A stretch of 36,183 nt of DNA, taken from IMG/VR virus record IMGVR_UViG_2737471857_000022; one strand, 5' to 3'. This DNA comes from a virus (Duplodnaviria; Heunggongvirae; Uroviricota; Caudoviricetes). Both the position numbers and the translations under genes were made by a program. Below the pieces are notes generated by a model, which was given only the letters and a program-made list of their open reading frames with translations, was not told the DNA's origin and did no database searches. This document shows, in pieces, positions 1-35,796 of this stretch. Numbering within the stretch: the stretch's first letter is position 1; each line of letters starts with the position of its first letter.

Positions 1-351
1 ATGCGAGGGACAGTCGAAATTATGCGTTATCCCGTCACTCTTACACCCGCGCCGGAAGGCGGTTATATGGTTTCTTTTGTGGATATCCCTGAAGCGTTGA
101 CGCAGGGCGAAACTGTCGCTGAAGCGATGGAAGCGGCAAAAGATGCTTTACTGACCGCATTTGATTTTTATTTTGAAGATAACGAGCTTATCCCTTTACC
201 TTCGCCATTAAATAGTCATGATCACTTTATTGAAGTGCCTTTGAGCGTCGCCTCTAAGGTATTGCTGTTAAATGCTTTTTTACAGTCAGAAATCACTCAG
301 CAAGAGTTAGCCAGGCGAATTGGCAAACCTAAATGTTGTAAACCCCAATAA
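1..351 (+). pseudogene. hicB: hicB-type antitoxin gene, 3'-truncated: HicB-like sequence for ~111 codons, then 5 foreign codons (CCKPQ) and stop
   Basis: ORF 1..351. Residues 8-111 (MRYPVTLTPAPEGGYMVSFVDIPEAL...ELARRIGKPK) match my recollection of enterobacterial HicB (N-terminal domain plus start of the C-terminal HTH). The frame diverges at nt 334 and stops at 349-351. Everything downstream is phage-like. Confidence 0.55.
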
Positions 352-372
352 CTAAAATTTTTGCAATAAAAA

Positions 373-395
373 AGCCCCATCACAAGGACAGGGCT
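373..395 (-). terminator. weak hairpin plus T-run downstream of the minus-strand ORF 415..720
   Basis: AGCCC/GGGCT stem (373-377 with 391-395); A-run 367-373 on + strand is a T-run on the minus strand. Confidence 0.3.
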
Positions 396-414
396 ATAGA
401 ATCAATCACTTACA

Positions 415-1017: not shown

Positions 1018-1578
1018 ATGAAAGAAGAATTAACCCTTACAGAAATTTCCCGCTTATACGGCTATACAATTAACGCCGCTAAGAAATGGCAAGAACGAGG
1101 AATGCCATTTAACACCAATACACGACGCGTACCGCTCAAGGAAGGGACCGAATGGATAGCAAAAAATATCATCAGTCCACTCAGGGAAACTACTGTCAAA
1201 GAACAAATCGACGTAGAGAAGTTACGCCGCGAGAGAGCATTAGCGGACGCAGCCGAACGAGAGAACCAGGAAGCAATGAATCTCCTGATTCCCGTCGGGT
1301 ATGTGGAGCAGGAGCTAGCGGAATACTGCGGGAAAGTGAAGCAGACTATTTTGCAGATCGCCACAATCGACGCTTTAGAAATTCTCGAATCTGCCACTGA
1401 CCAGAAAACATTGAAGAATAAGCTAAGGGAGATCATCGAGCGTCGTTTAAATGAAGTAGGGGACTTGTTCGAAAATGCAGATTTGGGAGAAGACGAGGAA
1501 GAAGAATTACCATTAATGGATGAACCGGAAGAACAAGAACAAGAACCAGAAGAAGACGATGAATTTGATGTGTCTTAA
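1018..1578 (+). CDS. Nu1-family HTH DNA-binding protein with acidic C-terminal tail; possible small terminase subunit
   Basis: N-terminus LTLTEISRLYGYTINAAKKWQERGMPF plus EKLRRE resembles lambda Nu1 winged HTH (recalled). 186 aa against Nu1 181 aa. GGAGG SD at 1003-1007. Not adjacent to the large terminase gene, so the role is uncertain. Confidence 0.6.
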   Translation: MKEELTLTEISRLYGYTINAAKKWQERGMPFNTNTRRVPLKEGTEWIAKNIISPLRETTVKEQIDVEKLRRERALADAAERENQEAMNLLIPVGYVEQELAEYCGKVKQTILQIATIDALEILESATDQKTLKNKLREIIERRLNEVGDLFENADLGEDEEEELPLMDEPEEQEQEPEEDDEFDVS

Positions 1579-1625
1579 AACGCGTTATAAATAAATGTAT
1601 GAAAGATGTTGATGGTCAACGTCTA

Positions 1626-1655
1626 CGGGGGATGTTCTCCCCCGCTTAACTTTTA
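1626..1655 (+). terminator. hairpin GGGGGA-TGTTC-TCCCCC with weak T tract
   Basis: Inverted repeat at 1627-1643 directly after the stop of CDS 1018..1578. Confidence 0.35.
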
Positions 1656-1670
1656 AGAGGATATAAAACT

Positions 1671-1955
1671 ATGGCTACTTTTATTACCTATGCTGTCATC
1701 ATTACTATTCTGGCAGTTATTTCTGCTTATAAACTCGGAACCGAAAATAGAGAACGTGCTGAATTATTCTTAGGTGCGTTTGTTGCATTTTCTAGTCTCG
1801 CGTTAATTGTCGAAGGAATTTCTTATATTGTTGGCCTAGTTAGTATGACACTTTTTAACTTCCATCCGGCTATTTCTATGCATCTACTGCTTACTGTATG
1901 CTGGGTATATTGCTTAATCGAATTTTTAACGTTTGTTTTCAAACAGACTAAATAA
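1671..1955 (+). CDS. small integral membrane protein (94 aa, about 3 hydrophobic helices)
   Basis: ORF with AAGAGG SD; strongly hydrophobic segments (ITYAVIITILAVISAY, FLGAFVAFSSLALIV, LLLTVCWVYCLIEFLTFVF). Confidence 0.55.
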   Translation: MATFITYAVIITILAVISAYKLGTENRERAELFLGAFVAFSSLALIVEGISYIVGLVSMTLFNFHPAISMHLLLTVCWVYCLIEFLTFVFKQTK

Positions 1956-2112
1956 TATTGTAATCTGCCATTTCTCCTTATGTGGTTTTAACAGGGGGCT
2001 TTCGAAAGAGAGTTCCCGGTTAAAAGCCATAAAACACATTCAGTACAGTGTTTTTCATAGTCAGTGACTATACAACATAAAAACATAACAAGTATAGATT
2101 GAGTATTAATCC

Positions 2113-2138
2113 TCCCGCCCTTCGGGGCGGTTATTTTT
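2113..2138 (+). terminator. rho-independent terminator (CCGCCC-TTCG-GGGCGG plus TTATTTTT)
   Basis: Perfect GC stem with UUCG tetraloop followed by a T tract. Confidence 0.7.
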
Positions 2139-2217
2139 CTGGCTTTACTAGATAATGTAGCATTATGTTCATTATAAATCCTCATCTTTGTTGTGCAAAC
2201 CTAACCTAAACTTACTA

Positions 2218-2243
2218 GGGACTCTTCGGAGTCCCTTTTTTTA
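2218..2243 (+). terminator. rho-independent terminator (GGGACTC-TTCG-GAGTCCC plus TTTTTTT)
   Basis: Perfect 7-bp stem, UUCG loop, 8 T. Second terminator about 80 bp after the first. Confidence 0.75.
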
Positions 2244-3182
2244 TTGGCAGTAAGAAAAGTTAGTACCGTACATTTCATCATGAAGCATTGCAGCATTGCG
2301 TTTCTGTTCTTCTTCCTCATCTTCTACATCACTAGAAAAATGAGATTTGCCCTTAAAAGAACGAAGTAATTGCAGTGCAGCCATCGGATCACGCATCACA
2401 TCGATTTTCACTTCTACTTCATCATTTGCGGCCTCATCAGCCGCGTTTTCAACTACTGCTACCGGAGCAACTTCTTTAGCTTTCAGTTCTTCAATCTCAG
2501 CTTTCTGTGCTTCGATAATCTGGTCTTTTTCTTCCAGTGCAGCTTTCAGTTCTGCGATCTGTGCTTCCAGTGCAGCAAAGCGATCTTCAACAACCGGAGA
2601 AACAGCATTCACCTGTGCTTCCAGTTCCAGAAATGCTTCGCAAGATTCAATACGTTCTTTCTCTTCACCTTCATAAGCAACCAGTTCTACAACTTCTTTT
2701 TCGGTAGCGTGGCTGTTAAAGAAAACAGCAAAGTAAGGATTGCCGGATTTAGTGAAGTTCAGTTTAGCTTTTCCGGTAACTTCTTTACGACGACCGAAGG
2801 TGATCTGGCAATCAGCGGTATCCTGAAAATCCATGTTAGGAGCGGAAACGATAGCAGTATCACCAGCAATAACCAGGTGGAACAGTTCAGAAGAGTTCTT
2901 AACGGTAAAAGTAACGATGTGGTCTACTGCAACGTCTTTAGCAGGTTTAACGCGGTCGATTGCTTTACGAATGCCGTTAGGCAGTTTACCGTCAACACCA
3001 AAGCCAGCCGCGATCAGTGCTTCACGATGTGCTTTAAAGCCAGCGAAGGCGGATTTCTGCTGCGCAAAGGAAACATGAGCAACAACTTTCGGCTGAATCT
3101 TCTTGTTTGCTTCGGTGCCAAATTTGATAACTGCTTTAGCGTTGGTTACTTCGTTAGTGAAAAAGTTAGCGGAAAATAACAT
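2241..3182 (-). CDS. hypothetical protein (313 aa) with central coiled coil and acidic C-terminus
   Basis: ORF with AGGAG SD 8 nt upstream; heptad-like EAQIAELKAALEEKDQIIEAQKAEIEELKAKE; no family recognised. Confidence 0.6.
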   Translation of the reverse strand: MLFSANFFTNEVTNAKAVIKFGTEANKKIQPKVVAHVSFAQQKSAFAGFKAHREALIAAGFGVDGKLPNGIRKAIDRVKPAKDVAVDHIVTFTVKNSSELFHLVIAGDTAIVSAPNMDFQDTADCQITFGRRKEVTGKAKLNFTKSGNPYFAVFFNSHATEKEVVELVAYEGEEKERIESCEAFLELEAQVNAVSPVVEDRFAALEAQIAELKAALEEKDQIIEAQKAEIEELKAKEVAPVAVVENAADEAANDEVEVKIDVMRDPMAALQLLRSFKGKSHFSSDVEDEEEEQKRNAAMLHDEMYGTNFSYCQ

Positions 3183-3295
3183 TATAAATACTCCTGTGGA
3201 AAGTTAGTTTTAATTGTTCATTTCAAGCCTCCTTTGCTGCAACAAGGGAGGCTTTTTCTTTTTTTAAAGCCATCATATAATTCTCAGTCAAAGTA

Positions 3296-3478
3296 TCAGT
3301 AAACCTCTGCGGTTATCTTTACTTTAATGTCATACTTCTTTAAGAGTTTATGAAAGGTTGATTTATCGATACCCTCATTTTTAAACCACTCTTCAATTCT
3401 CACACCCGGCGTTAACTCAAAGTAGCGTTTAGCCATTTCTAAGATGATTTCGCGAGTGAACTTAACAGGTCGTGCCAT
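3296..3478 (-). CDS. small HTH DNA-binding protein (60 aa), Hin/resolvase-type HTH-like
   Basis: AGGAGG SD 5 nt upstream; ARPVKFT...GIDKSTFHKLLKKYDIK resembles a GRPxK-type HTH; paralogous to CDS 6886..7113. Confidence 0.55.
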   Translation of the reverse strand: MARPVKFTREIILEMAKRYFELTPGVRIEEWFKNEGIDKSTFHKLLKKYDIKVKITAEVY

Positions 3479-3994
3479 CTCGAATCCTCCTACAATGTGG
3501 ATTAATGATTTCTTAAAAAAGAGCGTTAACCGCTCACTATTATTTATATGGGGATTGTATTTTATTTTTCAACCCCTCACATTTATCTCTTATATATGTA
3601 TTTACAACAGAGATATGTTAAAATGTTATTCAGATGTTATCAGGCGTGTTAAATGTGTTAAACCACAGCACGAATTGCTAAAGCGAAGAACACGATTTAA
3701 CCAAATTGATGTATATTCAATCAATTTAGAAAAAGGCATAGCACTTTTTGCTAAAGCGGTGAGCATTAATTGAGCTATGAATTGTAAAGATTTGTTACAA
3801 GATTTTCTCTCAGATCCAAATCTTCACAGACATATAACAATTTAACAGAAGGATAACAATAGGAAGGAAAATCGGTAAATTTTCACTTTCAATACAAATA
3901 TTATGACATATTTATCTCTAATTTTCAAGTATACCACTGTTCCTGCACAGTGTCAACAAAGGACTTTCAAACCTACACTAGCCCTACACTATGA

Positions 3995-4237
3995 AAATTG
4001 CCCCCGAATTTTTGCCCCTGAACCAAAATCCCCTAGATTTCACATCCCATTTTTGCCCCTGAAACCCACTATTTTTGCCCCTGAAATTCTGGGAAACAGT
4101 GATTTTGCCCCTTATTTTTGCCCCTGAAATGCCAATAATTGCCCCTGAAAATCTAATTTTTGCCCCTGAATTTTGCCCCTGAAAAGGATTTGTGAGAAAA
4201 ACTCTTTATAAAACATTAACTTAGTGAGGGGCAAAAC
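3995..4237. repeat. iteron array: at least 6 perfect and 3 degenerate direct copies of TTTTGCCCCTGAA plus one inverted copy
   Basis: Perfect copies start at 4010, 4051, 4073, 4116, 4158 and 4171. Degenerate copies near 3997, 4103 and 4139. Inverted copy GAGGGGCAAAA at 4225-4235. Confidence 0.85.
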
Positions 4238-4239
4238 AG

Positions 4240-4860
4240 GGAATCGGGCGTGCATAGATATTATATAACACATTCGCTACGCTCATGTGTAAAACCAAAA
4301 ACAACAAATAACCAAAAAGATATTAGGAGGGCGTAGCCCGACTGCGCGAAGCGCTAACCAATTACTTCTAGTAACACTAATTTAAACTAGATGATACTAG
4401 ATGGTCTTAGAAGGAATTAACTAGTTTGCTCGCTCGCTTCGCTCACTCTCAAACGTCTGCGACGCCACTGCGTGGCATCGAGAATCACTTCTGAAAGGAT
4501 TTTCTTGAAAGGGATTTTAAACTAGTTACTAACTGATTCTAGAAAGATAGTAATAATCACTTTGAAGATAATAGTAGTTAACTGGTTACTAGATGATTCT
4601 AGATCACTTTAATGATCATGAAAGGTATTGGTTATCCCTTCGGGATTGCAACCTTCGGTTGCTAAATTGCTTCCGGATTATTATTTCTCCAAAAGAAAGA
4701 TTCTTATATTCTAAAGATACTTCTTCGTTTTGATGATGATTTAATCAAAATCTATGAAGGAGGCGAAGCCGACTGAATACCAATTCCTTTCAAATTAGAC
4801 AAAAATTTCTCGTTATAAATAATAGTGTACTTTGTTTGATTCACTTTCTTTTAGAGGATT
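4240..4860. other. about 600 bp non-coding region with clustered ACTAG(A/T)T motifs and tandem UUCG-loop hairpins
   Basis: No ORF of 60 aa or more with an RBS. CTAG-containing motifs at 4366, 4387, 4396, 4420, 4521, 4537, 4588 and 4597. Hairpins at about 4458-4480, 4633-4645 and 4648-4663. Confidence 0.4.
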
Positions 4861-4866
4861 TCCACT

Positions 4867-5319
4867 ATGATCAATACTAAAACTCCTTTCATTCTTCTGG
4901 GTCTGAACCATGATGATAATCTGGCTATGATGCATGTTTTCGCTAATCGTGGTTATAACATCATTCGTCATTCCGAAGACTCCAATTTCTCAACTGCTTT
5001 CTATGCTCTTAAACGTAATGGTCGCCCTACGGTGATCGTAGACTGCTTTACTGATGAAGGTCGTGAACAATACAACAACATTCCGGCAATTATTGTTCGT
5101 GATGACCTGCCGTTTGATGTTCGTGAATATGACGTTGATTTAGGCTCTTACTATGGGATCGCCGATCTTGACCAGATTATGGCTGATTATGGTAAACAAC
5201 CCGCTCAGGAAGCCCCAGAACACGATGAACAAGACGAAGATGACGACGACTACGCACCAATCTGCTTCTCTTCTCAGAATGGCTTCTACGGTTACGATGA
5301 AGGCTTAGATATGCTGTAA
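4867..5319 (+). CDS. hypothetical protein (150 aa) with acidic C-terminal tail
   Basis: ORF with GAGGA SD; codon usage consistent with neighbours; no family recognised. Confidence 0.6.
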   Translation: MINTKTPFILLGLNHDDNLAMMHVFANRGYNIIRHSEDSNFSTAFYALKRNGRPTVIVDCFTDEGREQYNNIPAIIVRDDLPFDVREYDVDLGSYYGIADLDQIMADYGKQPAQEAPEHDEQDEDDDDYAPICFSSQNGFYGYDEGLDML

Positions 5320-5341
5320 GTTAGGTCAACCCTTTGGCGTC

Positions 5342-5383
5342 TTGTCAAGGGGTATTGACAAAATTTTCTGACTTTTTTATGAT
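5342..5383 (+). promoter_or_regulatory. sigma70-like promoter (TTGACA-17 nt-TATGAT) overlapped by palindrome TTGTCAA-N6-TTGACAA
   Basis: -35 at 5355-5360, -10 at 5378-5383, inverted repeat at 5342-5361; a further TTGACAA at 5392-5398. Confidence 0.45.
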
Positions 5384-5439
5384 TATCGCACTTGACAATT
5401 TTGAACCTATTTGACCTAGATTTGTAAAGAGGATGTAAC

Positions 5440-5772
5440 ATGAAAGAATTTACCATCACTAAATCCCTGTATGACTGGACTGTTAAAATCTCCGGCAAAA
5501 CCGTTTCTGTAAGCCCTAGCCATGTAGAAAATGATTGGGGCGTATCCCGTGAAACTATCTCCCGTAGTATGCATGTTCCGTTTGATCTGATGTCCTTAAC
5601 TGGTATTCATGCAATGCTGGAAGTTCGCGAACAATTCGAAGCTGGTAATCACAATGCGACTCCAGTTAGCAATCACCTTCTTACTAATGAAGAACGTGAA
5701 ATCATCGAAAACTGGCGTTATGAATATGCGATTCCTTATTATGAAGAAGATCAGGTAGAAATCGATTGGTAA
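5440..5772 (+). CDS. hypothetical protein (110 aa)
   Basis: ORF with AGAGGA SD; no family recognised. Confidence 0.6.
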   Translation: MKEFTITKSLYDWTVKISGKTVSVSPSHVENDWGVSRETISRSMHVPFDLMSLTGIHAMLEVREQFEAGNHNATPVSNHLLTNEEREIIENWRYEYAIPYYEEDQVEIDW

Positions 5773-5861
5773 TAAATTTCTATTATAAATAAAATTGTTC
5801 CGGTGGTGATGCCGGAACTAGGAGGACCAAATCATTAAACCGTTTAAGGGGAATTAATACT

Positions 5862-6737
5862 ATGAATACTGTTACTACTATGAATACTGCTAACGTTTCT
5901 TTTGATGCTTCTCTGACTGCCACAAAGAAAGAATGGCAAATCGATAAAACCGCTTCAATGTCTCTGGTTGTTGATAACACCAAACCGCTGACCATGTCTA
6001 CTTTGCAGATCGCGCAAATGATGGATCGCGTAGACCGCCACCGTGATATTAAGCGAACTGTTGACCGTCTCGTTTCTTCCGGTGTAATTGTCCACACGCC
6101 AACGGCGCGCGAACAACTGGAAGATAAATTTGGTCGTTCTCGTGAAATTGAAGTTTATCTTCTTGATGAACGTTCGTCATATATTGTTGTTGCTCAAATT
6201 TCGCCAGAATTTACCGCTTTTATCGTTGATGAATGGAAGCGACTGAAAGAAGAAAATGAAAAACTTCGCTCTACTCCTGTTAACCCGTATGCAGACTTTG
6301 AAGAAACAGACTGGATCGAACTGGCATTAGATGAAAAACGCAAAAATAAAAAACTGATTGAGCTACACATTCGCAAATCCGTAGATAGCCATTCTATGAC
6401 ACGTCTGTTAGGCGCTAAAAAGGGCGCTACGAAGGTTAAAGAAGCACTAACGGCCTTGCGTACTGCTGGCTACATTGAGCGCGTCTACGATGAAAATAAC
6501 AAGCCGTGTGGGTATGTTGCTAATGACTCTTCTCTGTCTTTCTGCCGCATGAATGCTCACTACCAACTTGAGTTTACTGTTGATGTTCTTCCGGTGCTGG
6601 TTGAATTGGGCGTTTTGGAAGAAGAACAGAAAGCAACTCTTAAACTACCGCAGCCAAATAACACTATTCTGATTCAAAATAAAGCGGCTGAACGTCTCCG
6701 CCAGAATGTTGGATCACTGGAAGTCTTCGGACTGTAA
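5862..6737 (+). CDS. Rha-like phage regulatory protein / antirepressor-type protein (291 aa)
   Basis: Segment LTMSTLQIAQMMDRVDRHRDIKRTVDRL resembles the Rha-family N-terminal motif (recalled); AAGGGG SD. Confidence 0.5.
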   Translation: MNTVTTMNTANVSFDASLTATKKEWQIDKTASMSLVVDNTKPLTMSTLQIAQMMDRVDRHRDIKRTVDRLVSSGVIVHTPTAREQLEDKFGRSREIEVYLLDERSSYIVVAQISPEFTAFIVDEWKRLKEENEKLRSTPVNPYADFEETDWIELALDEKRKNKKLIELHIRKSVDSHSMTRLLGAKKGATKVKEALTALRTAGYIERVYDENNKPCGYVANDSSLSFCRMNAHYQLEFTVDVLPVLVELGVLEEEQKATLKLPQPNNTILIQNKAAERLRQNVGSLEVFGL

Positions 6738-6844
6738 TTAATTTTTAGCCTCGCCTCGTGCGGGGCTTTTTCATACCTACATCACGCGACTTTTCGCGCC
6801 ATCTTCCACCAACCCGCCGATGGCGTTTTGGACACCCTACAGAT

Positions 6845-6870
6845 ACAAAAAAGCCACTCCGAAGAGTGGC
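6845..6870 (-). terminator. rho-independent terminator for the minus-strand operon 7754 to 6886
   Basis: GCCACTC-TTCG-GAGTGGC hairpin; A6 on + strand is T6 downstream on the minus strand. Confidence 0.65.
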
Positions 6871-6885
6871 AAAGAGAATCAAAAC

Positions 6886-7113
6886 TCAAAAACCTGTTGC
6901 TTCTACGATCTGACCATCACCGATCTGAACATAGAATTTAATGTCTAACTTCTTCATATTCTTATAGAATTGGGCGATTGAGATCCCATGTTCACTAAGA
7001 ATCTGTTCTTTCGCTTCCTTACCACGATCCGCTGTATAATAAGCGTAGGCAATATCAGCCATCTGTTCAGCGTTAAAACGGGCAGGGCGACCGCGAGTAG
7101 CTTTAGTAGTCAT
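6886..7113 (-). CDS. small HTH DNA-binding protein (about 75 aa from the second ATG; ORF opens with GTG at 7146)
   Basis: RGRPARF...GISIAQFYKNMKKLDIK HTH, paralogous to CDS 3296..3478; GGAG SD suits the ATG at 7113. Confidence 0.5.
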   Translation of the reverse strand: MTTKATRGRPARFNAEQMADIAYAYYTADRGKEAKEQILSEHGISIAQFYKNMKKLDIKFYVQIGDGQIVEATGF

Positions 7114-7148
7114 AGTCATTTTCTCCAAATTAAAGTGAATGTTCACCT

Positions 7149-7754
7149 TTATTTAGAGGACTTACATTTTATCGGAAAAAGTTCTTCATCGTCAATACTC
7201 ATAAAGAACTCTGCCTTAATCCCGTACTTCTTCAACCGTGAATAGTATGTACCCCGACTTATATCAACCTTGCGAAGCACTTCAAAGAACCCTTTAGGAT
7301 CGTTGTAATAGTGGCTATAACGCACGTTAGCGAGTTCAACGAATAGTTCCCTTGTATCACCATAGCCTTTCTTGAAAGCCTCGTTACGATAGCGTGTAAT
7401 TGCGTGATTCAATCTCTTCTGTTTCAACACTTCCCTGATCGGTGTCCACTGCAACCGATAGATAGGACCGTCATCAATGCGATAATAACGCTTGATATCA
7501 AAATCAAACCAATCTCGGACTCTCCGAAACTCTGTATGTGATGTTCTATGCTTCTTAAAGAAGTTGTGAACGTCTGTATAACCATTATCGCGGTAAAACT
7601 CTATTAAAATCTCTTTCGCTTCCTCACGACTAAAGCCAGATGTTGTGTAGTCGGTTTTTAAATGCTTATGCTTAACTGGCAAACGATATTCATGATCGGT
7701 ACAACAAGACAAGGCTAATTCTACTTCATCTCTTTGTTGCTGATTAATTAGCAT
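7149..7754 (-). CDS. hypothetical protein (201 aa) with C-terminal HTH related to the two small HTH proteins
   Basis: AAGGGGG SD 5 nt upstream; C-terminal [16 protein letters not shown] matches the HTH motif of 3296..3478 and 6886..7113. Confidence 0.6.
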
Positions 7755-7841
7755 ACAACCCCCTTAAATCTTAATACCCGTATTTATCAAAATATCAACA
7801 ATTTAATAAATACCTTCATATTTCGTAATGAGGGTAATTAC

Positions 7842-9749
7842 ATGAAACTGATTTCTAATAAGGCCAAATTAAAAAAGATTCTCAGAAATGCAGCCAAATA
7901 TATTACGCCACCGCCTAAACTCCTCCCTTCTGAATGGTGCGAAGCGAATATGGTGCTGGTAGATGGTCCTCAAGCTGGGGATAAAGTTAAATTGCTGTCA
8001 TTCCAGAAAGGCATGATTGATGCTCCTTTCCTTGAGAACAAGAAAAAGTATGTTCTGATGACCAGTGCGCAGATCGGAAAGACTACCATCCTGAACGGTA
8101 TCCTGTTTAACCAGATGGCTAACGATCCATGCAATATGATTATCGGACAATCAACCGCTAAAGAAATGTCTCAATATCTCGCGGGTAAGATCCGACCGTC
8201 CATCGAAGCATGTGATGCATTAAAAGACGTGGTTACAGACAAGAATGATCGCAATGCGGTTAACAACAATAACCAGCTACAGCTAAAAACGAATCACTTC
8301 CTGTACATGGTATCGCTTACCAGTCCATCAACCCTACGTGGTAAGACCGCAAAGGTTGGATTGCTTGACGAAATCGATGCTGCTACAGCCTCAGAAGAAG
8401 GTGATCCGGTGGCGCTGGCTGCTAACCGTTTAACTACCTTTGGCGATGAAGGTCGATTAGTCGTATCCAGTACCCCGACCAGTAAGCTCGGAAGCATTAA
8501 CCAGCAATGGTTATCAAGTGATATGCGTATGTTTTTTGTTCCGTGTCCTCATTGCGGTAGACACCAGGTGATCGAGTGGGAAAACGTACAGTTTGAATGG
8601 CGTAACATCGATGGTAAGAATTTACCCGATCCTGATACCGCTCGTTATATTTGCCCCCATTGTAAGAACGCATGGACAGAAGGGGAACGAATCAGGGCAG
8701 TAGCGCAAGGCGAGTGGAGAGCAACCCGTGAAAGTGAAGTAGCAGGATTCTGGATTAGCCGTCTGTATTCACCTTTCAGCACGATCCGCGCTTGTGTGGT
8801 TGATTTTAGTCATGCGTGGCAATCCTTTGATTTACAATCATTTTATAACACCGTGTTAGGCAAGGTATACGACGATCAGGACACGGCAGTAGAAGCAAAT
8901 GAACTGGAACAACTCAAAACAGATGTTTCTATCGAGAATATCCCTGATGACGTGATTTTCTTGTGTTCAGGAATCGACCAGCAATTGGACCGCGCAGAAT
9001 CTACCATCTTAGGTGTAGCGAAAGATAAGGTTTACATTCTGGATCACCGCAGCTTTTACGATCATAACTGTGAACGATATGAATCACCTGTTTGGGATCG
9101 TCTGGTTAACTTCAAGAAAACCAAATTCTATAACGTTAATGGTGAACGTGTGCCAATGCTCGCCAGCTTCCTTGATACATCGAACGGTCGATTCACTCAA
9201 GCCGGATACCGTATTTGTGGCAAGTGGAAGAACCTACACGCGATCAAAGGTAGTTCATCCGGTAATGCTCCAGTGATTCCGGTTAAACCTACCCGCACAG
9301 GTGGTCATGAATTGCTTATGTTGGGTGTTAACGTTGGGAAATCTGCTGTTCGTGAAATGCTGGTTAGAAACCTGAAAGACAATCCTCACATCGGCTTAGA
9401 AATATCAGAAACCGTTCCTGATGATTATCTCGATCAGCTTTTGAGTGAATCCATCAAGCGTACTACTACTGGCGTGCGTTGGGTGAAAAATCCAGGTAGT
9501 ACCCGAAACGAGGCTCTCGACTGTCTGGTTTATAGCTATGCTGCTTCTCGCTACGTCCTTTCAAAAATGTCATGGGATAAACTCATTGCAATGAAAGACA
9601 GCTTAAACCGTGTTGTCGAAGAACCCGTAAAAGCTCCTGAAACGCAATCTGACGAGCAAATCGAAGAAACTAAGCCAATCACACGACCACAACGTCAAAA
9701 CATCGCCAGACGTCCAAATAGAGGCCGTAGTTGGGTAACATCGTTCTAA
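7842..9749 (+). CDS. terminase large subunit, lambda GpA-like (635 aa)
   Basis: P-loop TSAQIGKT near residue 75, two Cys-x2-Cys pairs ([16 protein letters not shown]); size and position ahead of portal. Confidence 0.85.
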
Positions 9750-10326: not shown

Positions 10327-11835
10327 ATGTTTAATCTTTTTCGACGCAAAAAGGTGGTAGAAACTCCAGTTAAAACTAATCACCGCCAGCAACAAAAATT
10401 ATTCATCAACAAATCTGTAGAAAAATACCAGAATGACCTGAATAAACGAAGTTTAGGATTGGTGGGTGATCGCATTGATGGATCGCTTCAACAAGATACT
10501 ATCACAGGAACCTTCAATAAGGCTCTTAAATCGAACGCTAAACGCCTTTATGATCAGGGTCGTACTCTGGCCTTAAACACTGCTGTAGGCAGTCGCTACA
10601 CGCAATACATAACCGATATGGTGGTTGGTACTGGCCTAGATCCGAAACCATCTATGGTTAAATCAAACGGGAAACTTGATAGCGCACTGAATAAGCAGAT
10701 CGAGAATGCTTTCTGGAAGTGGGCGCAGAATGCTAAACGCTTCTCTCGTAATGGTCGCTTTAACTTCCGTGAATTGCTGGTAATGGCTGAACGTGAGCGC
10801 GTTATGGGTGGTGAGTGCTTCATCGTTTTAACTAAAGAAAACAATGAGTTAAACGTTTCTATCCTGTCTGCTGATAAGTGCGACTGGACGCTCAACCGTG
10901 AAGTTAGTAAAGACCGCGCGATATATCAAGGTGTGGAGTATGACGTAGAGACAATGCGCCCTGTTGCATACTGGTTTCGTAAAATCAACCTACTGACTCA
11001 GACCTACACTGGTGATAACTATCGCGTAGATGCTTCTCAAGTATGCCATTATTATCAACCACTTGCGGCTGAATCTCTTCGTGGTGTGACTGACTTCCTG
11101 CCAGTGATTAAGGACATTGCTCATCAAGACGCATTCCGCGAAGCAGTTTTAATACAGAAGAGAATCGCAGCTACAGCAATGGGTTTTATCGAGCGCCCGA
11201 AAGATTCCGGTGACGATTTTGATACTGGTGAAGATGAAGACCAATATCAAGCGCCGGACGTTATTCACGATTTCGCGCCCGGTACTATTCAGGAACTGCC
11301 GGAAGGGGCAACGATCAAGAGTATTCAGAGCAACCAAAGCGGCGACGACTTTAACAGCTTTAACAGTGGAATGTTCACGAGTATCGCAATGGGATTGGGC
11401 GTGTTCAATCAGGGCTTAACTGGTGATACTAGCCAGATCAACTACAGCGCTGCACGCTTTGGGGAACTACTTCAACGTAACCGCGTTAAAGCACTGCAAA
11501 ACAAATTAATTGAAACGGTGGTATTGCCAATTTTCGAAGCGTATCTGCGTCATTATTCCGCGCGTGGTGTTGTTCCGATTCGTATTACTGCAATCCCGCA
11601 TGTTATCGATAATACAACTATTATTAGACCACGTTTCGAGTCCGTTGACGTCAATAAAGATGTGAGCGCCGATATTGCTTTAATTGATAAAGGACTTAAA
11701 TCACGTACTGCTGTTATTCTTGAACGTGGTGATGATCCTGAAAAAGTATTCTCAGAGATTCAAGCCGAAAAAAGCGCACTAAATATTATCGTTAATGGCG
11801 AGAGCAAGGATAACCCTTCTCAAGCCGATCCCTAA
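10327..11835 (+). CDS. portal protein, lambda gpB-like (502 aa)
   Basis: Position after terminase, size, acidic Asp/Glu-rich segment; TAAGGGGTAAA SD. Confidence 0.8.
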   Translation: MFNLFRRKKVVETPVKTNHRQQQKLFINKSVEKYQNDLNKRSLGLVGDRIDGSLQQDTITGTFNKALKSNAKRLYDQGRTLALNTAVGSRYTQYITDMVVGTGLDPKPSMVKSNGKLDSALNKQIENAFWKWAQNAKRFSRNGRFNFRELLVMAERERVMGGECFIVLTKENNELNVSILSADKCDWTLNREVSKDRAIYQGVEYDVETMRPVAYWFRKINLLTQTYTGDNYRVDASQVCHYYQPLAAESLRGVTDFLPVIKDIAHQDAFREAVLIQKRIAATAMGFIERPKDSGDDFDTGEDEDQYQAPDVIHDFAPGTIQELPEGATIKSIQSNQSGDDFNSFNSGMFTSIAMGLGVFNQGLTGDTSQINYSAARFGELLQRNRVKALQNKLIETVVLPIFEAYLRHYSARGVVPIRITAIPHVIDNTTIIRPRFESVDVNKDVSADIALIDKGLKSRTAVILERGDDPEKVFSEIQAEKSALNIIVNGESKDNPSQADP

Positions 11836-11880: not shown

Positions 11881-13884
11881 ATGCTTAAATTTCGCCGCGA
11901 TCTTAACGGTTACGGTGGAGTTATTAACGAAGGGCATAACGATCAATACGAATTTGAAATTGCTTTCTCAAGTACACAGCCTTATCAGCGCCAATTTTGG
12001 GATGAGCAAAATCAAGAAATGGTGGTATTAGATGAAATTCTGGTACATACACCGGAAGCGGTTGATCTGTCTCGTCTGAATAATAACGCTCCGTTGCTGT
12101 TCAATCATAATTTCGATAATCACATTGGTGTAGTCTGCGACGCTCGAATCGATGCGGATAACGTAGGCCGTGCTCTGGTTAAATTCTCTAAGCATGGCAC
12201 TTTGGCTAATGATATTCGCAATAAAGTCATTGAAGGTACGATGGAAAAAATTTCTGTCGGTTATGACATTAAAGAATATCACATCGACTACACCAAAGGG
12301 CAATTGATTGTTACTAAGTGGGCGCCTTTTGAAATTTCATTTGTGACGGTTCCCGCAGACGATTCGGTCGGTTTAAATCGCTCTCTAAATACTATCACAG
12401 TTAATTTGGGGGCTAAACGCGATATGACTAAAGAACAAATCGAAGAAATCAAAGAAGAACAAGAACCCGCTCAGGTTGAAGAAACTCCGGTAGAAGAAAA
12501 TAAAGAACCGAAAGTTGAAGAAACTCAAGAGCGCCAAGTTGAAGAGAATAAAGAAGATGAAAATCTCGAAGACGGAAAAGACGCTAAACATCCTGAAAGT
12601 GTTGATGATGATAGTTCAACTGTTCGGGAAACAGAAGAAGTAAAAGAAGAACGTGAAGCCGCTCCGGTTGAAGAAGAAAAAACCGAAGAAGTGGCTGAAC
12701 GTTCCGAAGAAGACGAAGAAGAAATCCGAGCAATCGCGCGGGAACTAAATATTGACGACGAAGAATTGAAACGCGCATTGGCAATTAAAGACATGACGCC
12801 GGAAGCATTCCGCACTAAGGCACTAAATAATCTCGTCAATGCTCAACGTAATAACGAACAAATTAAGGACTCTAAAATGGAAAAAACTTTTGACCTGAAC
12901 AACGTAATTCGCTCTCTGGTAGATGGTGAAGCTCTGGGTGCTAACGAAGCCGAGTTTTCTGCAATGGCTGCTACTGCAACTATGCAGCGTGGTCGTGCTG
13001 CTCGCGGTGGCTCTGTATTCGTTCCGACTGCTGCTATGCGTGCTGCTGCTGATGGTAACACCAAAGCTACTCTGACCGCTGTAACCGACGAAAAACTGCT
13101 GAATGATTCCTATGTAGCGATGCTGTTGCCGGAATCCGTTCTGGGTCGTCTTGGTGTGAAAGTCCTGTCTGGTCTGACTTCGCCGACCGCTATTCCTAAA
13201 ATGACCGCTTCCAGCGTTGAATCTTTCGGCTTCGTTGATGAAAACGGTGCTGCGCCGGAAGGTAAAGCTGAATTTGCAAACGTGAAAATGGCTCCTAAGA
13301 CGTTTGCTGGTGGGAATCCGATCAGCAGAGCTAGCCTCAAGACCGTACCCGGCATCGCTACCCTGATCACTGATCACATTAACCAGGCTGTTCGCATCAA
13401 ACTGGAACAACTGATTCTGTCCGACAAAGAAAATGCTCGTGGTCCGGCTGGTGTGATTAAACAACTGGTAGATGCTGGTCGCGTAGAGAAGAAAGCTGCT
13501 TTCTCTTATAAAGACTTCCTGAAAGAAATTGCTAAACTGACCGACGCTGGCGTTCCTGCTCAGGCGATCAAGTTTGCAATGAGCGGTGCAACTGCTGCTG
13601 AACTGGAATCTACCCTGAAAGATAACGGTGTTTCCGGTTATATCATCGAAAACGGTAAACTGGCTGGTTACGACGTAGTTACTTCTGGTGTTATTCCGGT
13701 AGACCACATCGTTCTGGGATCGTTCGACGCTATTACCATCGGTGAATGGGGTGGTCTGGAACTTGACATTGATGACACTACCTACCGCGCACAGTCTGCT
13801 ATCGTTCCGCGTATCTGGGTAGATCTGGATTACGTTGTAACCCAGCCGGAAGCGCTGAAAGTTCTTCACATCTCCGCTGAATGA
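11881..13884 (+). CDS. single polypeptide fusing prohead protease (HK97 gp4-like), acidic scaffold/delta linker and HK97-fold major capsid protein (667 aa)
   Basis: N-terminal 170 aa carry protease-like motifs (LLFNHNFDNHIG, ISVGYDIKEY, EISFVTVPADD). Residues about 180-300 are Glu/Lys-rich low complexity. The C-terminal 340 aa are capsid-like. Confidence 0.8.
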   Translation: MLKFRRDLNGYGGVINEGHNDQYEFEIAFSSTQPYQRQFWDEQNQEMVVLDEILVHTPEAVDLSRLNNNAPLLFNHNFDNHIGVVCDARIDADNVGRALVKFSKHGTLANDIRNKVIEGTMEKISVGYDIKEYHIDYTKGQLIVTKWAPFEISFVTVPADDSVGLNRSLNTITVNLGAKRDMTKEQIEEIKEEQEPAQVEETPVEENKEPKVEETQERQVEENKEDENLEDGKDAKHPESVDDDSSTVRETEEVKEEREAAPVEEEKTEEVAERSEEDEEEIRAIARELNIDDEELKRALAIKDMTPEAFRTKALNNLVNAQRNNEQIKDSKMEKTFDLNNVIRSLVDGEALGANEAEFSAMAATATMQRGRAARGGSVFVPTAAMRAAADGNTKATLTAVTDEKLLNDSYVAMLLPESVLGRLGVKVLSGLTSPTAIPKMTASSVESFGFVDENGAAPEGKAEFANVKMAPKTFAGGNPISRASLKTVPGIATLITDHINQAVRIKLEQLILSDKENARGPAGVIKQLVDAGRVEKKAAFSYKDFLKEIAKLTDAGVPAQAIKFAMSGATAAELESTLKDNGVSGYIIENGKLAGYDVVTSGVIPVDHIVLGSFDAITIGEWGGLELDIDDTTYRAQSAIVPRIWVDLDYVVTQPEALKVLHISAE

Positions 13885-15686: not shown

Positions 15687-18600
15687 ATGCAATCAATCCA
15701 ATTTAAACGAACTAATGTTTCTGGCAAAAAACCAACGCCGGAACAATTACAGGTCGGTGAGGTAGCAATCAACCTTAAAGACCATGTTATTTTTACCAAA
15801 GACCGAGATCATGAAGTAGTTCAAATCTCTGTTTCTCCTGAAACTCACGCGGCACTAGAATCTAAAGTTGATGCTAACAAACAAGAACTAGATAGCACAA
15901 TTGCAGTAAATGACCGCAATATTCACGCTAAAGTAGATGAAATTAAACAAACTACTGATGCAACCATCGCAGCAAATCACGCAGAAATTAACAATAAAGT
16001 TGATGTAATTAAACGCGAAACCGACGCGACAATCGAGGCCAATAAAAATAAAGCTGCTTCCGACCTTGCTGGTGTTAAAGCTGAATTGTCGGATACCATC
16101 AACGCTAATAAAAATGCGGCTGCTGTAGCAACTCAGGAACTGGACACCCGCATCAATAAAAAAGTTGATGATATTAAATCCCGCACCGATGCAACCATCG
16201 CAAGCAATGACAAAGCAATCAATGACAAGGTTGATTTGATTAAGGCAGAAACTGACCGCACTATCGCAGCAAATAAAGTCTATGCGGAAAATCAGTTAAC
16301 TGACACCTACAATAACCTTACTGGTGTGATTGCAGCCAATAAGCAAGAGGCAGCGGATAACGTCGCAGCATTAACCCGTGATGTTGAAGCCAAAAATACA
16401 GCAATTCATAGCAAAATTGACAACAACAAGGTTTACACTGATTCTGAATTGGCACGCTTAGAAAGCCGTATTGATGCAGCCGATGGATCTGCTGATGGCA
16501 AGTACATCAAAAAACACGTAAACACTTATACTGATGGTTATTTGCTGTCTAAGACCGCAAACTATTTTGATGATCCAAGTGCGCGTAATCTTGATTACTT
16601 TGGTGCATTCCGTATGAATGACCTAGCGGGTCATATTGCTTTAGCGTTACATGTTCCGCATCCATCCGGCGTTAATCATGCTCGTGGTTTTGAGTTCACT
16701 TATGGGTCTAATCCACATGCTACGGTAAGAACATACGGCTATGATGAATTGGGTCATTTGGCATATTCTCACCGCATGTATCATGAAGGTGATAAACCTA
16801 CTCCGGCTGAAATTGGCGCATATTCGAAAGCAGAAATTGACCGCCTGTTCCAGAAGACGCTTAATTTTGGTATCGAGGGCGGTTGGTTTAAACTAGGCAC
16901 TTTGACAATGCCACAGCAACACGGTCGCACCGCTAAGATCCGTTTGGTTGGTGGTAACGGTTATAACGTCGGGATGAATGGACAAGCCAATATTATCGAA
17001 TTGGTGATTCGATGCGGCAACAATAGCCCGAAAGGTGTTGTATTCAATGCTTATTATAGCATCTGGTATCACGAACAACATTTTTGTGCAATTCCTACCG
17101 ATGGTGATAATTACGATCTTTACGCTTACTATGGTGCACATACAGGATTTGTTTTAGCAGAATATCAAGTTTCTTCCGGTGGTGTTTCTTTAAACCTGTT
17201 GGATACTCCTGAATACCTGGGCGGTGAAAAACCTGTTGCAGATGAAATTTTTGATGCTCTTAACATTTCATCGTTCAATAACTTTAGCAACCGTGGAACG
17301 TTAAATTTTGGCGGAAACCATCAAGGCCAATATGATATTGAGCATTTGAACGAACAACAAACAAATGCTAAAAAGATGTTGCGTCGCTTCCGTAGTTCTG
17401 CTCCTGCCACTATCTGGCATGAAACTGTTGATGATAACGCATATCGTCTTGCTACTGGATACGAAGATACAAATCAGGAATTATTACTGACAGCAACAAC
17501 CGGATTACATATCAAGAAATTAACATTGGATGGCGGTGTTGGTGGAAATTCTGGTATTGATATTCGTCGAGGACCAAATGAAGCAAGCCATTTTAATTTC
17601 ATGGATTATCGCACTGGTCAAGATGTTCGTAATGGCTGGTTTGGTTTTGGTGACGGTCAGACGAAAGATTTTATTTGGTGGAACGATAACGGTCAAAACT
17701 CAATCAACCTGATCGAAAACGGTGAATTGCATATTACTGGTGGTAAAGGCCAGAAAATTGTAATGAATAGCGAAGTTGCATTGTCTGAAAATGCTCGTTT
17801 GGCTGTCAAAGGCGGTAACTATGGTTTGATTTTACGCAATGATGGTTCTGGTTTCCATATTCTTACTACCAATTTAAAAGATTCTTTTGGTAGTTGGAAT
17901 AATCGCAGACCATTCAGTTATGATTTTGCGGACGGTGGATTATATTTAGGTGGTACTGAAACCGCTCGGTGTTTACATCTGGGGATTGATGGTAGCACTC
18001 GTCTTGAAGACAACCTGTTCTTTAAAGCTGGTTCTCGTCAATCTATGGACTATATGGAACTCGTCCATTGGGGGGCAAGCAATACAGGTCGAAATAACGT
18101 TTTAAGTCTTCGTGACTCAAAAGGATTTTTCGCAGAATTTGAAAGATTGGGTGATAATACCATTAAAAACTCCTTCTTTGGTAAACTTAAAATTAATCGC
18201 GGATCTGATGCAATTATCATGAATGCCGAAAGTGGTGATTCTTCTGTATATTTGTTGGGTACGTGTGCTGATAACAATAATTGGTATATCGGTAAAGGCG
18301 GCGCTGATAATGGATTGGCGTTCTATAGTTATGCTACTAATGCTGCTGTAAACATTACAAACGCGGGGGATATCGCTCTAAGTCCAAAAGGCATCGAAAT
18401 GACTCATGTCAATAACGTTCGATTCTATGTTCATGGTGAACGTTGGACTGCTAGCCAATCTGGAGGTTGGAACGACCAGTGGGGATTAGAAGCGCCGATA
18501 TTTGTCGATCATGGTTATGTTTCACCGGACTGTTATTACCCAATTATTAAAGGAAGAAGTTTAATCACCAATCAAGGGTATACAACTGCCGTCGATTTTG

Positions 18601-19097
18601 GTCTGCGTCGTGTTCCTAATGCATGGGGACAAGCAATTATTCGCGTTGGATCTGCGGAGGCATCGCCAGCGGCTGGTCATCCTCAAGCTGTATTCGAGTT
18701 CCATCATGATGGTACTTTTTACTGTCCTGGTAATGGTAACTTTAACGATGTTTATATTCGTTCCGATCGTCGTCTGAAAATTAATGTTGAAGATTACGAA
18801 GAAAATGCGGTGGATAAGGTAAATAAACTCAAAGTTAAAACCTACGATAAAGTTAAATCTCTTAATGACCGAGAAGTTATAGGTCATGAGATTGGTATTA
18901 TCGCACAGGATTTACAAGAGGTATTACCGGAAGCTGTTAAAACCGCAAAAATTGGTGGTTTTGATAACCCAGAAGAAATTTTAACAATTTCAAACTCCGC
19001 AGTGAACGCGCTTTTAATTAAAGCGGTCCAAGAAATGAGCGAAGAAAATAAACTTCTTCGTGAACGTCTTGCTGCAATTGAAGCTAAATTAGGGTAA
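15687..19097 (+). CDS. side (L-shaped-type) tail fibre with C-terminal intramolecular chaperone domain, T5 pb1-like (1136 aa)
   Basis: Four about 22-aa repeats (xIxxKVDxIKxxTDATIxAN) at aa 77-200. C-terminal 110 aa (YIRS/DRRLK...GIIAQDLQEVLPEAVK...NSAVNALLIKAV) resemble the S74-type chaperone of T5 pb1 and endosialidases (recalled). Confidence 0.85.
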   Translation: MQSIQFKRTNVSGKKPTPEQLQVGEVAINLKDHVIFTKDRDHEVVQISVSPETHAALESKVDANKQELDSTIAVNDRNIHAKVDEIKQTTDATIAANHAEINNKVDVIKRETDATIEANKNKAASDLAGVKAELSDTINANKNAAAVATQELDTRINKKVDDIKSRTDATIASNDKAINDKVDLIKAETDRTIAANKVYAENQLTDTYNNLTGVIAANKQEAADNVAALTRDVEAKNTAIHSKIDNNKVYTDSELARLESRIDAADGSADGKYIKKHVNTYTDGYLLSKTANYFDDPSARNLDYFGAFRMNDLAGHIALALHVPHPSGVNHARGFEFTYGSNPHATVRTYGYDELGHLAYSHRMYHEGDKPTPAEIGAYSKAEIDRLFQKTLNFGIEGGWFKLGTLTMPQQHGRTAKIRLVGGNGYNVGMNGQANIIELVIRCGNNSPKGVVFNAYYSIWYHEQHFCAIPTDGDNYDLYAYYGAHTGFVLAEYQVSSGGVSLNLLDTPEYLGGEKPVADEIFDALNISSFNNFSNRGTLNFGGNHQGQYDIEHLNEQQTNAKKMLRRFRSSAPATIWHETVDDNAYRLATGYEDTNQELLLTATTGLHIKKLTLDGGVGGNSGIDIRRGPNEASHFNFMDYRTGQDVRNGWFGFGDGQTKDFIWWNDNGQNSINLIENGELHITGGKGQKIVMNSEVALSENARLAVKGGNYGLILRNDGSGFHILTTNLKDSFGSWNNRRPFSYDFADGGLYLGGTETARCLHLGIDGSTRLEDNLFFKAGSRQSMDYMELVHWGASNTGRNNVLSLRDSKGFFAEFERLGDNTIKNSFFGKLKINRGSDAIIMNAESGDSSVYLLGTCADNNNWYIGKGGADNGLAFYSYATNAAVNITNAGDIALSPKGIEMTHVNNVRFYVHGERWTASQSGGWNDQWGLEAPIFVDHGYVSPDCYYPIIKGRSLITNQGYTTAVDFGLRRVPNAWGQAIIRVGSAEASPAAGHPQAVFEFHHDGTFYCPGNGNFNDVYIRSDRRLKINVEDYEENAVDKVNKLKVKTYDKVKSLNDREVIGHEIGIIAQDLQEVLPEAVKTAKIGGFDNPEEILTISNSAVNALLIKAVQEMSEENKLLRERLAAIEAKLG

Positions 19098-19103
19098 TTG
19101 GAA

Positions 19104-19123
19104 AGCGGGGAGAAATCTCCGCT
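19104..19123 (+). other. stem-loop after the fibre gene
   Basis: AGCGGGGA-GAAA-TCTCCGCT, one mismatch, no T tract. Confidence 0.3.
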
Positions 19124-19135
19124 AAGGATTCTTAT

Positions 19136-19432
19136 ATGGGATATTGGGTAAGTAGTGAAATTAATACTAAAATCGATGCTTTAAAATGGCATGTATTTGA
19201 TATTCCTAACGGCTATGGTACTGCTCGTGCTGGTGTCGCTGTAATGCGTCATAATGCTGGTGGTGGGTGGTCTGATGCACATATTAACGTAGATGGTTTG
19301 ACCGTTGCTCGTCGTCGTGGTGGGACCAATTGGGGATCTACTATAAATTCGTTTGTTCCTGCTGGCTGCACCGTCTCCTTTGGTTTAGGGGGTGAAGGTG
19401 GTGTTGAATATTTTAAATTCATGGAGTTTTAA
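19136..19432 (+). CDS. small fibre-module protein, paralogue A (98 aa)
   Basis: AAGGA SD; shares W..(F/Y)FDIPNG(W/Y), Gly-rich middle and TVSF...YFKF with the next two ORFs. Confidence 0.65.
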   Translation: MGYWVSSEINTKIDALKWHVFDIPNGYGTARAGVAVMRHNAGGGWSDAHINVDGLTVARRRGGTNWGSTINSFVPAGCTVSFGLGGEGGVEYFKFMEF

Positions 19433-19434
19433 TT

Positions 19435-19740
19435 ATGGCTGGATGGATAAATCAAAGAATGTCAAACGCTATTAGTATTTGGGCTAATGGTGGATATTTT
19501 GATATCCCCAACGGCTGGGTTACTGATTCATGCGGAATTGTTTTTGCTCATATGGAAGCCATTAACGGTGCTGGTGATCTTGATTCTGAATTGGCTGTAA
19601 ATGGATTGATTGAATCAGGTCATCATGCTGGTGATGCTGGGAGTTGGGGCGCTAGTTCTTTAGTTGGCGCTGGTGCTACCGTTAGCTTTACATTGGGTAA
19701 AGGTAGTTTGCATTATTTTAAATTCAGGAGAATGCACTAA
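19435..19740 (+). CDS. small fibre-module protein, paralogue B (101 aa)
   Basis: Start 2 nt after the stop of A; same motif set. Confidence 0.65.
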   Translation: MAGWINQRMSNAISIWANGGYFDIPNGWVTDSCGIVFAHMEAINGAGDLDSELAVNGLIESGHHAGDAGSWGASSLVGAGATVSFTLGKGSLHYFKFRRMH

Positions 19741-20042
19741 TGGCATTTTGGGTAGATGGCGCTTTGGGGAATAGGGCGGGTAAAGCAAATCAAGGATGGT
19801 TTGATATTCCTAACGGTTGGACAGCCGACGCTTTCGGGACTATTTCATTCTGTGCTCATTCTTCCGGTGGTGGCGGTGGTGACTCTGAATTGCTTATTCA
19901 TGGTTTGTGTGTTTCTGGAAGCCATAAGGGTCATGATTGGGGACAGATTCATTCTTGTATTGCACCGCAAGGGGCGGTAATTACCGTTAGCACAAATAGG
20001 GGGATCGCTCATCTTCGTTATAGACGTTTGAGCAACCGCTAA
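19740..20042 (+). CDS. small fibre-module protein, paralogue C (100 aa)
   Basis: TAATG stop/start overlap with B; same motif set, more diverged C-terminus. Confidence 0.6.
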   Translation: MAFWVDGALGNRAGKANQGWFDIPNGWTADAFGTISFCAHSSGGGGGDSELLIHGLCVSGSHKGHDWGQIHSCIAPQGAVITVSTNRGIAHLRYRRLSNR

Positions 20043-20096
20043 ATAAATAGAATTACGGGTATGTGCCCTATTGTTTAAAATAGAAGGAAAAGAATA

Positions 20097-30927: not shown

Positions 30928-31281
30928 ATGTTAAGTAAGCATTTTTCTCGCAAGGAATTTAAATGTAAATGCGGAAAATGTGATTATGATACAATCGACG
31001 CTGAATTACTGGTAATTCTTGAGGATGTACGAGAACACTTCGGTAAACCAGTGATTATTAACAGTGGCAACCGTTGCCCGGCTCATAACAAGAATGTAGG
31101 CGGGGCAACCAACAGCTATCACGTTCGAGGCCGTGCGGCTGACATTGTGGTCAAGGGTGTCTCCCCTGATATTGTCCATGCTTATCTTGATGGGAAATAT
31201 CCTACTCAATACGGCTTAGGAAAATATAAAACCTTTACGCATATTGATTCCAGATCAAAAAAATCACGGTGGAATGGATAA
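30928..31281 (+). CDS. endolysin, zinc peptidase M15 family (117 aa)
   Basis: SGNRCPAHNKNVGGATNSYHVRGRAADIVV ... FTHID gives a His/Asp/His metal-ligand pattern typical of M15 peptidases; TAAGGGGGTAAT SD. Confidence 0.75.
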   Translation: MLSKHFSRKEFKCKCGKCDYDTIDAELLVILEDVREHFGKPVIINSGNRCPAHNKNVGGATNSYHVRGRAADIVVKGVSPDIVHAYLDGKYPTQYGLGKYKTFTHIDSRSKKSRWNG

Positions 31282-31894: not shown

Positions 31895-31934
31895 AAAAAA
31901 CCTCACTTAATTTATCTTATAGGCATTACCTTTA

Positions 31935-32387: not shown

Positions 32388-32422
32388 ATAGTAGTGAACT
32401 TATTATTTTCGAGGACACTAAT

Positions 32423-35174: not shown

Positions 35175-35193
35175 ACCATTTCCAAACAAAAAC

Positions 35194-35485: not shown

Positions 35486-35530
35486 AGTAGAATTTCCTCT
35501 TGTTATTTGAATTACGATATATTTATATCG

Positions 35531-35782: not shown

Positions 35783-35796
35783 AAATTAGAAATTAA

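Follow-up and report, generated by a model that had tools for sequence, protein, structure and literature searches.

The first 400 nt of the window (the whole stretch of 36,183 nt analysed here) very probably form the left attachment site, attL, of a temperate, siphovirus-like prophage of about 35.9 kb that was put into the hicB gene of E. coli by its own large serine integrase. When aligned to hicB of K-12, the window matches through nt 333, that is, over codons 1–111; the first divergent base is nt 334 (T, where K-12 has C), beyond which the two sequences are unrelated. The open reading frame that begins at nt 1 (translation MRGTVEIMRYPV...ARRIGKPKCCKPQ and stop; in an alternative extract, MRGTVEIMRYPVTLTPAPEGG...ITQQELARRIGKPKCCKPQ and stop) ends at nt 351, after a phage-encoded tail, CCKPQ. 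The original prediction had read a switch of frame to CCKPQ-stop at nt 334, and the uninterrupted K-12 gene puts the breakpoint at that very base. The equivalent of this chimeric gene, here called hicB', is annotated in RefSeq as 'hicB, incomplete, missing C-terminus'. The DNA after nt 334 had also been described as AT-rich and phage-like. This is true of nt 334–372, which are strongly AT-rich and correspond to the attP arm and the T-tract of a minus-strand terminator, the terminator being the source of most of the AT-rich stretch. However, it is not true overall, as GC content differs little between the hicB part (44.4%) and the rest of the window (41.7%).

Exact matches to the integrase and small terminase proteins led to contig JWZF01000074.1 (assembly GCA_000819145.1). 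The window is identical in span (36183 nt) to nt 4929–41111 of this contig, and the two could be compared over 4578 nt on the left and 6689 nt on the right without a single mismatch. Past the end of the window, the contig continues with 43 nt of phage DNA (tgttgtaccccctcgtgttattgtgggggcattatattaggg), followed by AAACCTAAA, hicB codons 112–145 with the stop codon, and then ydcR and ydcS; the core of the right attachment site, attR, starts from the 44th base beyond the window end. The 3' remainder of hicB, which had been expected at the far end of the element, is therefore present, and it is found again in ETEC1717, where a 99%-similar prophage shows the same arrangement and both halves of hicB are 'partial' in RefSeq. 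On the source contig, hicA is intact (58 aa, identical to HicA of K-12) and ends 24 nt before nt 1 of the window. Excision of the element in silico gave a hicB gene of 145 codons that differs from that of K-12 by 4 nt and one residue (E3G), and precise excision would, on this reconstruction, restore hicB. Both ends of the window coincide with gene starts, namely the ATG of hicB (nt 1) and the ATG of the last minus-strand open reading frame (nt 36183), and several IMG/VR prophage predictions of 36.0–38.5 kb begin at the same hicB ATG. Thus, the window is a prophage call trimmed to gene boundaries, with 324 nt of host DNA included at the left and an end that falls 43 nt short of attR at the right.

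Comparison of the attachment sites (Table 1) gives attB, within hicB, as GGC-AAACCTAAA-CAGGAG, attL as GGC-AAACCTAAA-TGTTGTAAACCCC and attR as TTAGGG-AAACCTAAA-CAGGAG. The reconstructed attP is ...TTGTGGGGGCATTATATTAGGG-AAACCTAAA-TGTTGTAAACCCCAATAAC..., and the attP junction predicted upon excision reads ...TTAGGGAAACCTAAATGTTG.... There is no target duplication beyond the core. A CCCC motif at nt 343–346 of the P' arm mirrors the GGGGG of the left arm. We also noted a direct repeat, TGTTGTA(A)ACCCC, in both arms of attP: one copy, TGTTGTACCCCC, lies just upstream of the gene for a 128-aa protein, and the other, TGTTGTAAACCCC, directly follows the core. On the minus strand, the left copy and the ribosome-binding region of the 128-aa gene overlap.

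Table 1. Positions of the junction, host and prophage features in the window.
Feature	Position (nt)	Strand	Basis or remark
Host hicB, codons 1–111	1–333	+	HicA-binding N-terminal domain and helices 1–2 of the C-terminal HTH; host DNA up to the crossover
Chimeric open reading frame, hicB'	1–351	+	HicB 1–111, CCKPQ and stop; 116 aa
Common core AAACCTAAA, 9 bp	325–333	.	Common to attB, attP, attL and attR; att-site comparison
Phage right arm (P') of the attachment site, TGTTGTAAACCCCAATAAC...	334–362	.	Diverges from hicB at nt 334
Intrinsic terminator of first phage gene	363–395	-	Stem 395–373, then T-tract; terminator scan
First phage gene, 101 aa	415–720	-	Reads towards attL; hypothetical protein in relatives
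Terminase small subunit	1018–1578	+	phrog_57, E = 1.7e-16; start of packaging genes
Ant-like anti-repressor	5862–6737		Only family match in early region 1600–7800
Virion and lysis genes	7842–31281	+	PHROG matches
Terminase large subunit	7842–9749	+	PHROG
Portal	10327–11835	+	PHROG
Fused protease/major head protein	11881–13884	+	PHROG
Major tail proteins; T4 gp37-like tail fibre; distal tail protein; second tail fibre	within 7842–31281	+	PHROG
Tape measure	21341–23770	+	PHROG
Endolysin	30928–31281	+	PHROG
Large serine integrase	33495–35174 (open reading frame 33495–35189)	-	559 aa from ATG (564-aa open reading frame); Pfam, PHROG
Small genes between integrase and attR	35240–36183	-	Open reading frames
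81-aa protein, signal-peptide-like N-terminus	35240–35485	-	Open reading frame
Two tiny hydrophobic open reading frames	within 35240–36183	-	Open reading frames
128-aa protein	35797–36183	-	Open reading frame; its ATG is the window end

Truncated HicB and the hicAB module

In E. coli, the N-terminal domain of HicB neutralizes HicA, and the C-terminal HTH dimerizes HicB and binds the operator (PMC11594946; PMC10865869). In Pfam searches, the window protein matches HicB_lk_antitox (PF15919) at aa 10–74 and gives no match to an HTH domain, and full-length K-12 HicB has HTH_3 at aa 95–141. The K-12 protein has the same sequence as the E. coli HicB chains of known structure, 6HPB and 6U0I, and aa 8–111 of the window HicB are likewise identical to these chains. 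As the HicB part of the window protein ends at aa 111, only the first part of the HTH is kept. This agrees with the earlier assignment of nt 1–333 to the N-terminal domain and the first part of the HTH, to which both the Pfam limits and the match to K-12 point. Judged from these limits, the complete C-terminal HTH, with its DNA-binding and dimerization functions, is absent from the window HicB, and the pattern ITQQELARRIGKPK before the break and QEITRLFN after it, read against the limits of HTH_3, suggests that the cut lies within the turn that joins helix 2 to the recognition helix. The proposal that the domain neutralizing HicA is kept and DNA binding lost is thus in agreement with the Pfam limits and with published structures (PMC11594946; PMC10865869).

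We suggest the following course of events. Recombination between phage attP and hicB attB, very probably carried out by the phage's own integrase, split hicB after codon 111. The truncated HicB would keep its partial RNase H domain, which covers the active site of HicA, and probably still neutralizes HicA. Without the recognition helix and the remainder of the HTH, operator binding and HicB dimerization would be abolished, and the antitoxin would probably be monomeric. The hicAB operon has two promoters; one of them, P2, is under repression by HicB and gives rise to HicB without HicA (PMC11594946; PMC10865869). In a lysogen, P2 would be constitutively on, and more antitoxin-only expression would be expected because P2 transcripts give HicB and not HicA. 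The lysogen would then make more of a DNA-binding-deficient antitoxin, and feedback responsive to HicA would be lost. From this analysis, it is reasonable to expect that hicAB autoregulation is changed in lysogens. The 3' fragment of hicB at attR (codons 112–145), which adjoins ydcR, lacks a start codon of its own, nor does the attR sequence upstream supply one in frame; therefore, a free HTH fragment is not expected.

Could the truncated HicB instead be unstable or inactive, leaving the lysogen close to a hicB null with partly free HicA? We regard this as possible, if rather unlikely. It would imply cleavage of mRNA and tmRNA, lower envelope-stress responses and a dispensable sigma-E. The HTH domain is left incomplete; the remaining helices 1–2 may be unfolded, and the truncated protein could then be a better protease substrate. 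HicB is a substrate of Lon (PMC5408214), and deletion of hicB is viable in K-12 (PMC5408214; PMC2215328), so that viable lysogens are no proof of a working HicB'. Furthermore, loss of ydcQ (hicB) weakens envelope stress responses and acts as a suppressor of rpoE lethality, an effect later attributed to toxin activation (PMC2215328; PMC11481867; PMC5408214). The single-sequence structure model of the truncated protein, which has low confidence (pLDDT 45) and is usable only for the order of secondary structure, would also be compatible with an inactive protein. However, nothing is missing from the HicA-binding domain, some HicB classes found in nature have no DNA-binding domain (PMC10865869), and HicB3 of Y. 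pestis still forms a complex with HicA3 after removal of its C-terminal domain (PMC11594946). Lost repression of P2 should, moreover, raise antitoxin-only expression (PMC10865869), and inactivation of hicA is not in excess among lysogens.

The last point comes from a survey of hicA in the lysogens described below. The gene is intact in about 27 of 35, and the other eight carry a frameshifting 22-bp deletion flanked by the direct repeat TGCG. This allele is common (811 of the 5426 complete E. coli genomes), which means that about 15% of genomes have an 'orphan' hicB. Compensatory loss of hicA in lysogens was considered and rejected, as the deletion is not enriched among them (8/35 versus 811/5350 genomes with the locus; odds ratio 1.66, Fisher p = 0.23).

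Starting again from a HicB' that still neutralizes HicA, one may ask if hicB was chosen as a target since insertion disarms or rewires a toxin-antitoxin defence, so that the choice of integration site would itself be an anti-defence strategy. We consider this improbable. Such a strategy would have an HTH-less, HicA-sequestering antitoxin made constitutively from the derepressed P2; HicA could no longer be released, for example at induction of the phage itself or upon superinfection, and excision would restore the wild-type module.

Prophage content and distribution

The element is a siphovirus-like temperate tailed prophage of about 35.9 kb, in which PHROG searches found packaging, head, tail and lysis genes, all present and intact (Table 1). 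The head gene, a single 667-aa open reading frame at nt 11881–13884, has matches to major head proteins as well as to head maturation proteases, so that protease and capsid appear to be fused in one gene. In the presumed early region (nt 1600–7800), GC content falls to 31–36%, and almost all open reading frames are without a family match. Searches with PHROGs, Pfam, NCBIfam and PADLOC recognized neither a repressor nor a replication gene or directionality factor in the element, and functions in lysogeny control and replication may lie in unfamiliar proteins. The first phage gene gave no family match, and the prophage open reading frames without an assigned family gave none in defence-system or NCBIfam searches.

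Two further regions deserve mention. At nt 15687–20058, a tail fibre gene (1136 aa) and three small open reading frames that follow it share 83–93% DNA identity with gp37-type long-tail-fibre regions of the virulent T4-like phages KFS-EC, G37-3 and MIZ4, and this module sits between two major-tail-protein-like genes of the siphovirus-like prophage. Its sequence gives the impression that temperate and virulent phages have recently exchanged a receptor-binding module; among deposited phage genomes, the prophage was matched in the tail-fibre region only. Near the integrase, two divergent genes at nt 31313–31906 (minus strand) and nt 32282–33421 (plus strand) both match phrog_681 ('endonuclease') and flank a 134-aa open reading frame, and the first of them has an additional weak match to a CapR domain. 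This pair could be cargo expressed during lysogeny.

The hicB junction is a recurrent one. A junction probe was covered in full in 36 of 5426 complete E. coli genomes (about 0.65%), and a longer probe, from hicA to attL, identified 35 lysogens in the same set. In the protein collection, the exact 116-aa chimeric protein is encoded on 287 contigs, and a 109-aa form with an alternative start on 23. The lysogens have hicAB alleles with 94–100% identity to the query and differ in the phage genes beside attL, which argues for repeated site-specific insertion and not for one inherited event. The P' arm next to hicB is conserved in all lysogens and in the matches from IMG/VR and metagenomes. The integrase module is present in 58 genomes. 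A sister prophage splits ycdX, a zinc-phosphatase gene, and its junction was found in about 26 complete genomes (for example, strains PEC41 and PigCaeca_2); two genomes, BS74R-D and UTME-9, carry both the hicB and the ycdX prophage.

We also searched for the excised element, using a gapped pattern that joins the right end of the window to the left arm, and using the right arm alone. In IMG/VR and metagenome contigs, there was no excised or circular attP form, only attL and attR forms; the right-arm searches returned only attL forms beside hicB, and the 28 IMG/VR integrase loci were all prophage predictions trimmed to gene boundaries or had attR in hicB. In strain C325, a degraded copy has an integrase truncated to 279 aa, directly next to a deletion that extends as far as a ynf molybdoenzyme gene. 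The attL and attR sites in hicB are about 200 kb apart in this strain, which indicates rearrangement through the prophage.

These observations bear on the question of whether the prophage is a fixed, defective remnant, its junction a fossil and hicB permanently inactivated. The lack of an attP form in the viral and metagenome collections, the lack of recognized repressor and replication genes, and the existence of degraded copies such as that in C325 would all be expected of a remnant. However, we think it unlikely, as the major structural, lysis and integrase open reading frames are all intact in the window and the integrase region is conserved in 58 genomes. Furthermore, the junction occurs in varied host backgrounds, with different phage variants and in two target genes, which requires recent mobility of the prophage family.

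Integrase, sister lineage and crossover

A large serine recombinase had been predicted at 33.5–35.2 kb, and the expected domains were found in the 564-aa open reading frame: Resolvase (PF00239) at aa 11–158, Recombinase (PF07508) at aa 203–291 and Zn_ribbon_recom (PF13408) at aa 315–373. It also matches phrog_95 (E = 3.6e-56), and its catalytic residue is presumably Ser12, in the motif IRFSS. It is the only recombinase detected in the element. The nearest integrases of deposited phages, gp53 of Burkholderia phage Bcep176 and the YbcK-like recombinases of E. coli lambdoid phages (e.g. phage Perceval), have the same domain organization but are only about 30% identical, over 80–85% of the length. 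A close-relative scan of bacterial contigs, with one genome per species, yielded no relatives of the integrase, and neither the att sequences nor the integrase N-terminus occur in those supplements of the large serine recombinase survey (PMC10083194) that were covered here.

The closest comparison is with the sister lineage in ycdX, whose integrase is 87% identical to the hicB type; 63 of the 70 differences fall in aa 1–375, the catalytic, recombinase and zinc-ribbon regions. Its P' arm has diverged yet is alignable. A closely similar integrase with a diverged attP arm at another gene links integrase sequence to target choice, and the two integrases are a compact natural pair for mapping the determinants of target specificity in large serine integrases. 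The sister lineage also helps to place the crossover. In ycdX, the attB prefix in attL and the attB suffix in attR overlap by exactly two bases and, therefore, the crossover there is uniquely AA (attB CCCGGA-AA-TCCC; attP TTAGGG-AA-CCCGAAC). The hicB-type and ycdX-type attP align with one gap, and this alignment places the hicB-type crossover at nt 325–327. Strand exchange at hicB would then take place at AA within the AAA of nt 325–327, codon K109, which lies 7–9 nt before the breakpoint seen in the sequence. The most favourable dyad centre in attP coincides with the first AA of the core, with weak symmetry (12 of 25 positions).

It is highly improbable that some other recombinase integrated the element and that the serine recombinase serves for inversion or resolution. 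The integrase lies about 1 kb from attR and is not immediately adjacent to it, and its role is assigned from sequence. However, no further integrase or transposase was detected among the main open reading frames; the short core, the weakly dyad-symmetric attP and the absence of extra target duplication fit serine integrases, and the integrase sequences differ in step with the switch between hicB and ycdX as target. That there was no insertion, and that the window shows a natural short HicB ending in CCKPQ or an assembly artefact, has virtually no probability: apart from the absence of the right junction from the window itself, nothing speaks for it, and a natural short variant is ruled out by the uninterrupted hicB of thousands of genomes, in which the probe match stops at the breakpoint, and by the remainder of the gene at attR, 43 nt past the window end, with the junction recurring in 35–36 complete genomes and on 287 contigs.

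Comparison with known systems

Insertion of a prophage into a gene by a serine integrase is a textbook event. The added interest here is that a toxin-antitoxin gene is split precisely between two functional domains, and that a close integrase has a different target. In the literature searched, outside of which most subscription journals lay, we found no description of hicB (ydcQ) or ycdX as a phage attachment site, and both sites are used by a phage group without a close relative among deposited phage genomes. The insertion would represent a natural separation-of-function allele of an antitoxin, in which toxin binding is kept and DNA binding and dimerization are lost. Such an allele could be exploited in testing both the two-promoter model of hicAB feedback and the proposed anti-phage role of HicA.

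The Listeria phages A118 and phi10403S insert into comK by means of a large serine integrase, inside a host open reading frame, and their precise excision restores the gene ('active lysogeny'). The hicB prophage is alike in its large serine integrase, in its insertion within an open reading frame and in the restoration of the gene upon excision (here in silico), but differs in host, target and integrase lineage. It also differs in that the 5' gene fragment is probably partly functional and not plainly knocked out. In B. subtilis, SPbeta in spsM (with SprA) and skin in sigK (with SpoIVCA) are large-serine-recombinase elements whose excision rebuilds a split gene, and both excisions are developmentally programmed. 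The hicB prophage likewise splits a host gene by a large-serine-recombinase element, whereas programmed excision is a feature of SPbeta and skin. The SPbeta integrase is treated elsewhere (PMC11722253).

Among antitoxins, the nearest counterparts of HicB' are HicB classes 1 and 2 (Gerdes 2024; PMC10865869), which are also essentially a partial RNase H, HicA-binding domain encoded beside hicA. However, those are native genes of 63–103 codons, whereas hicB' is made by a phage and encodes, in addition, a leftover HTH fragment of 27 residues and five phage residues. Finally, the deletion of ydcQ (hicB) in K-12, known as a suppressor of rpoE lethality, affects the same locus, with normal HicB function lost and the cells viable (PMC2215328; PMC5408214; PMC11481867). 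That allele is a full deletion that releases HicA, whereas the prophage allele keeps the neutralizing domain, and its phenotype may be the opposite.
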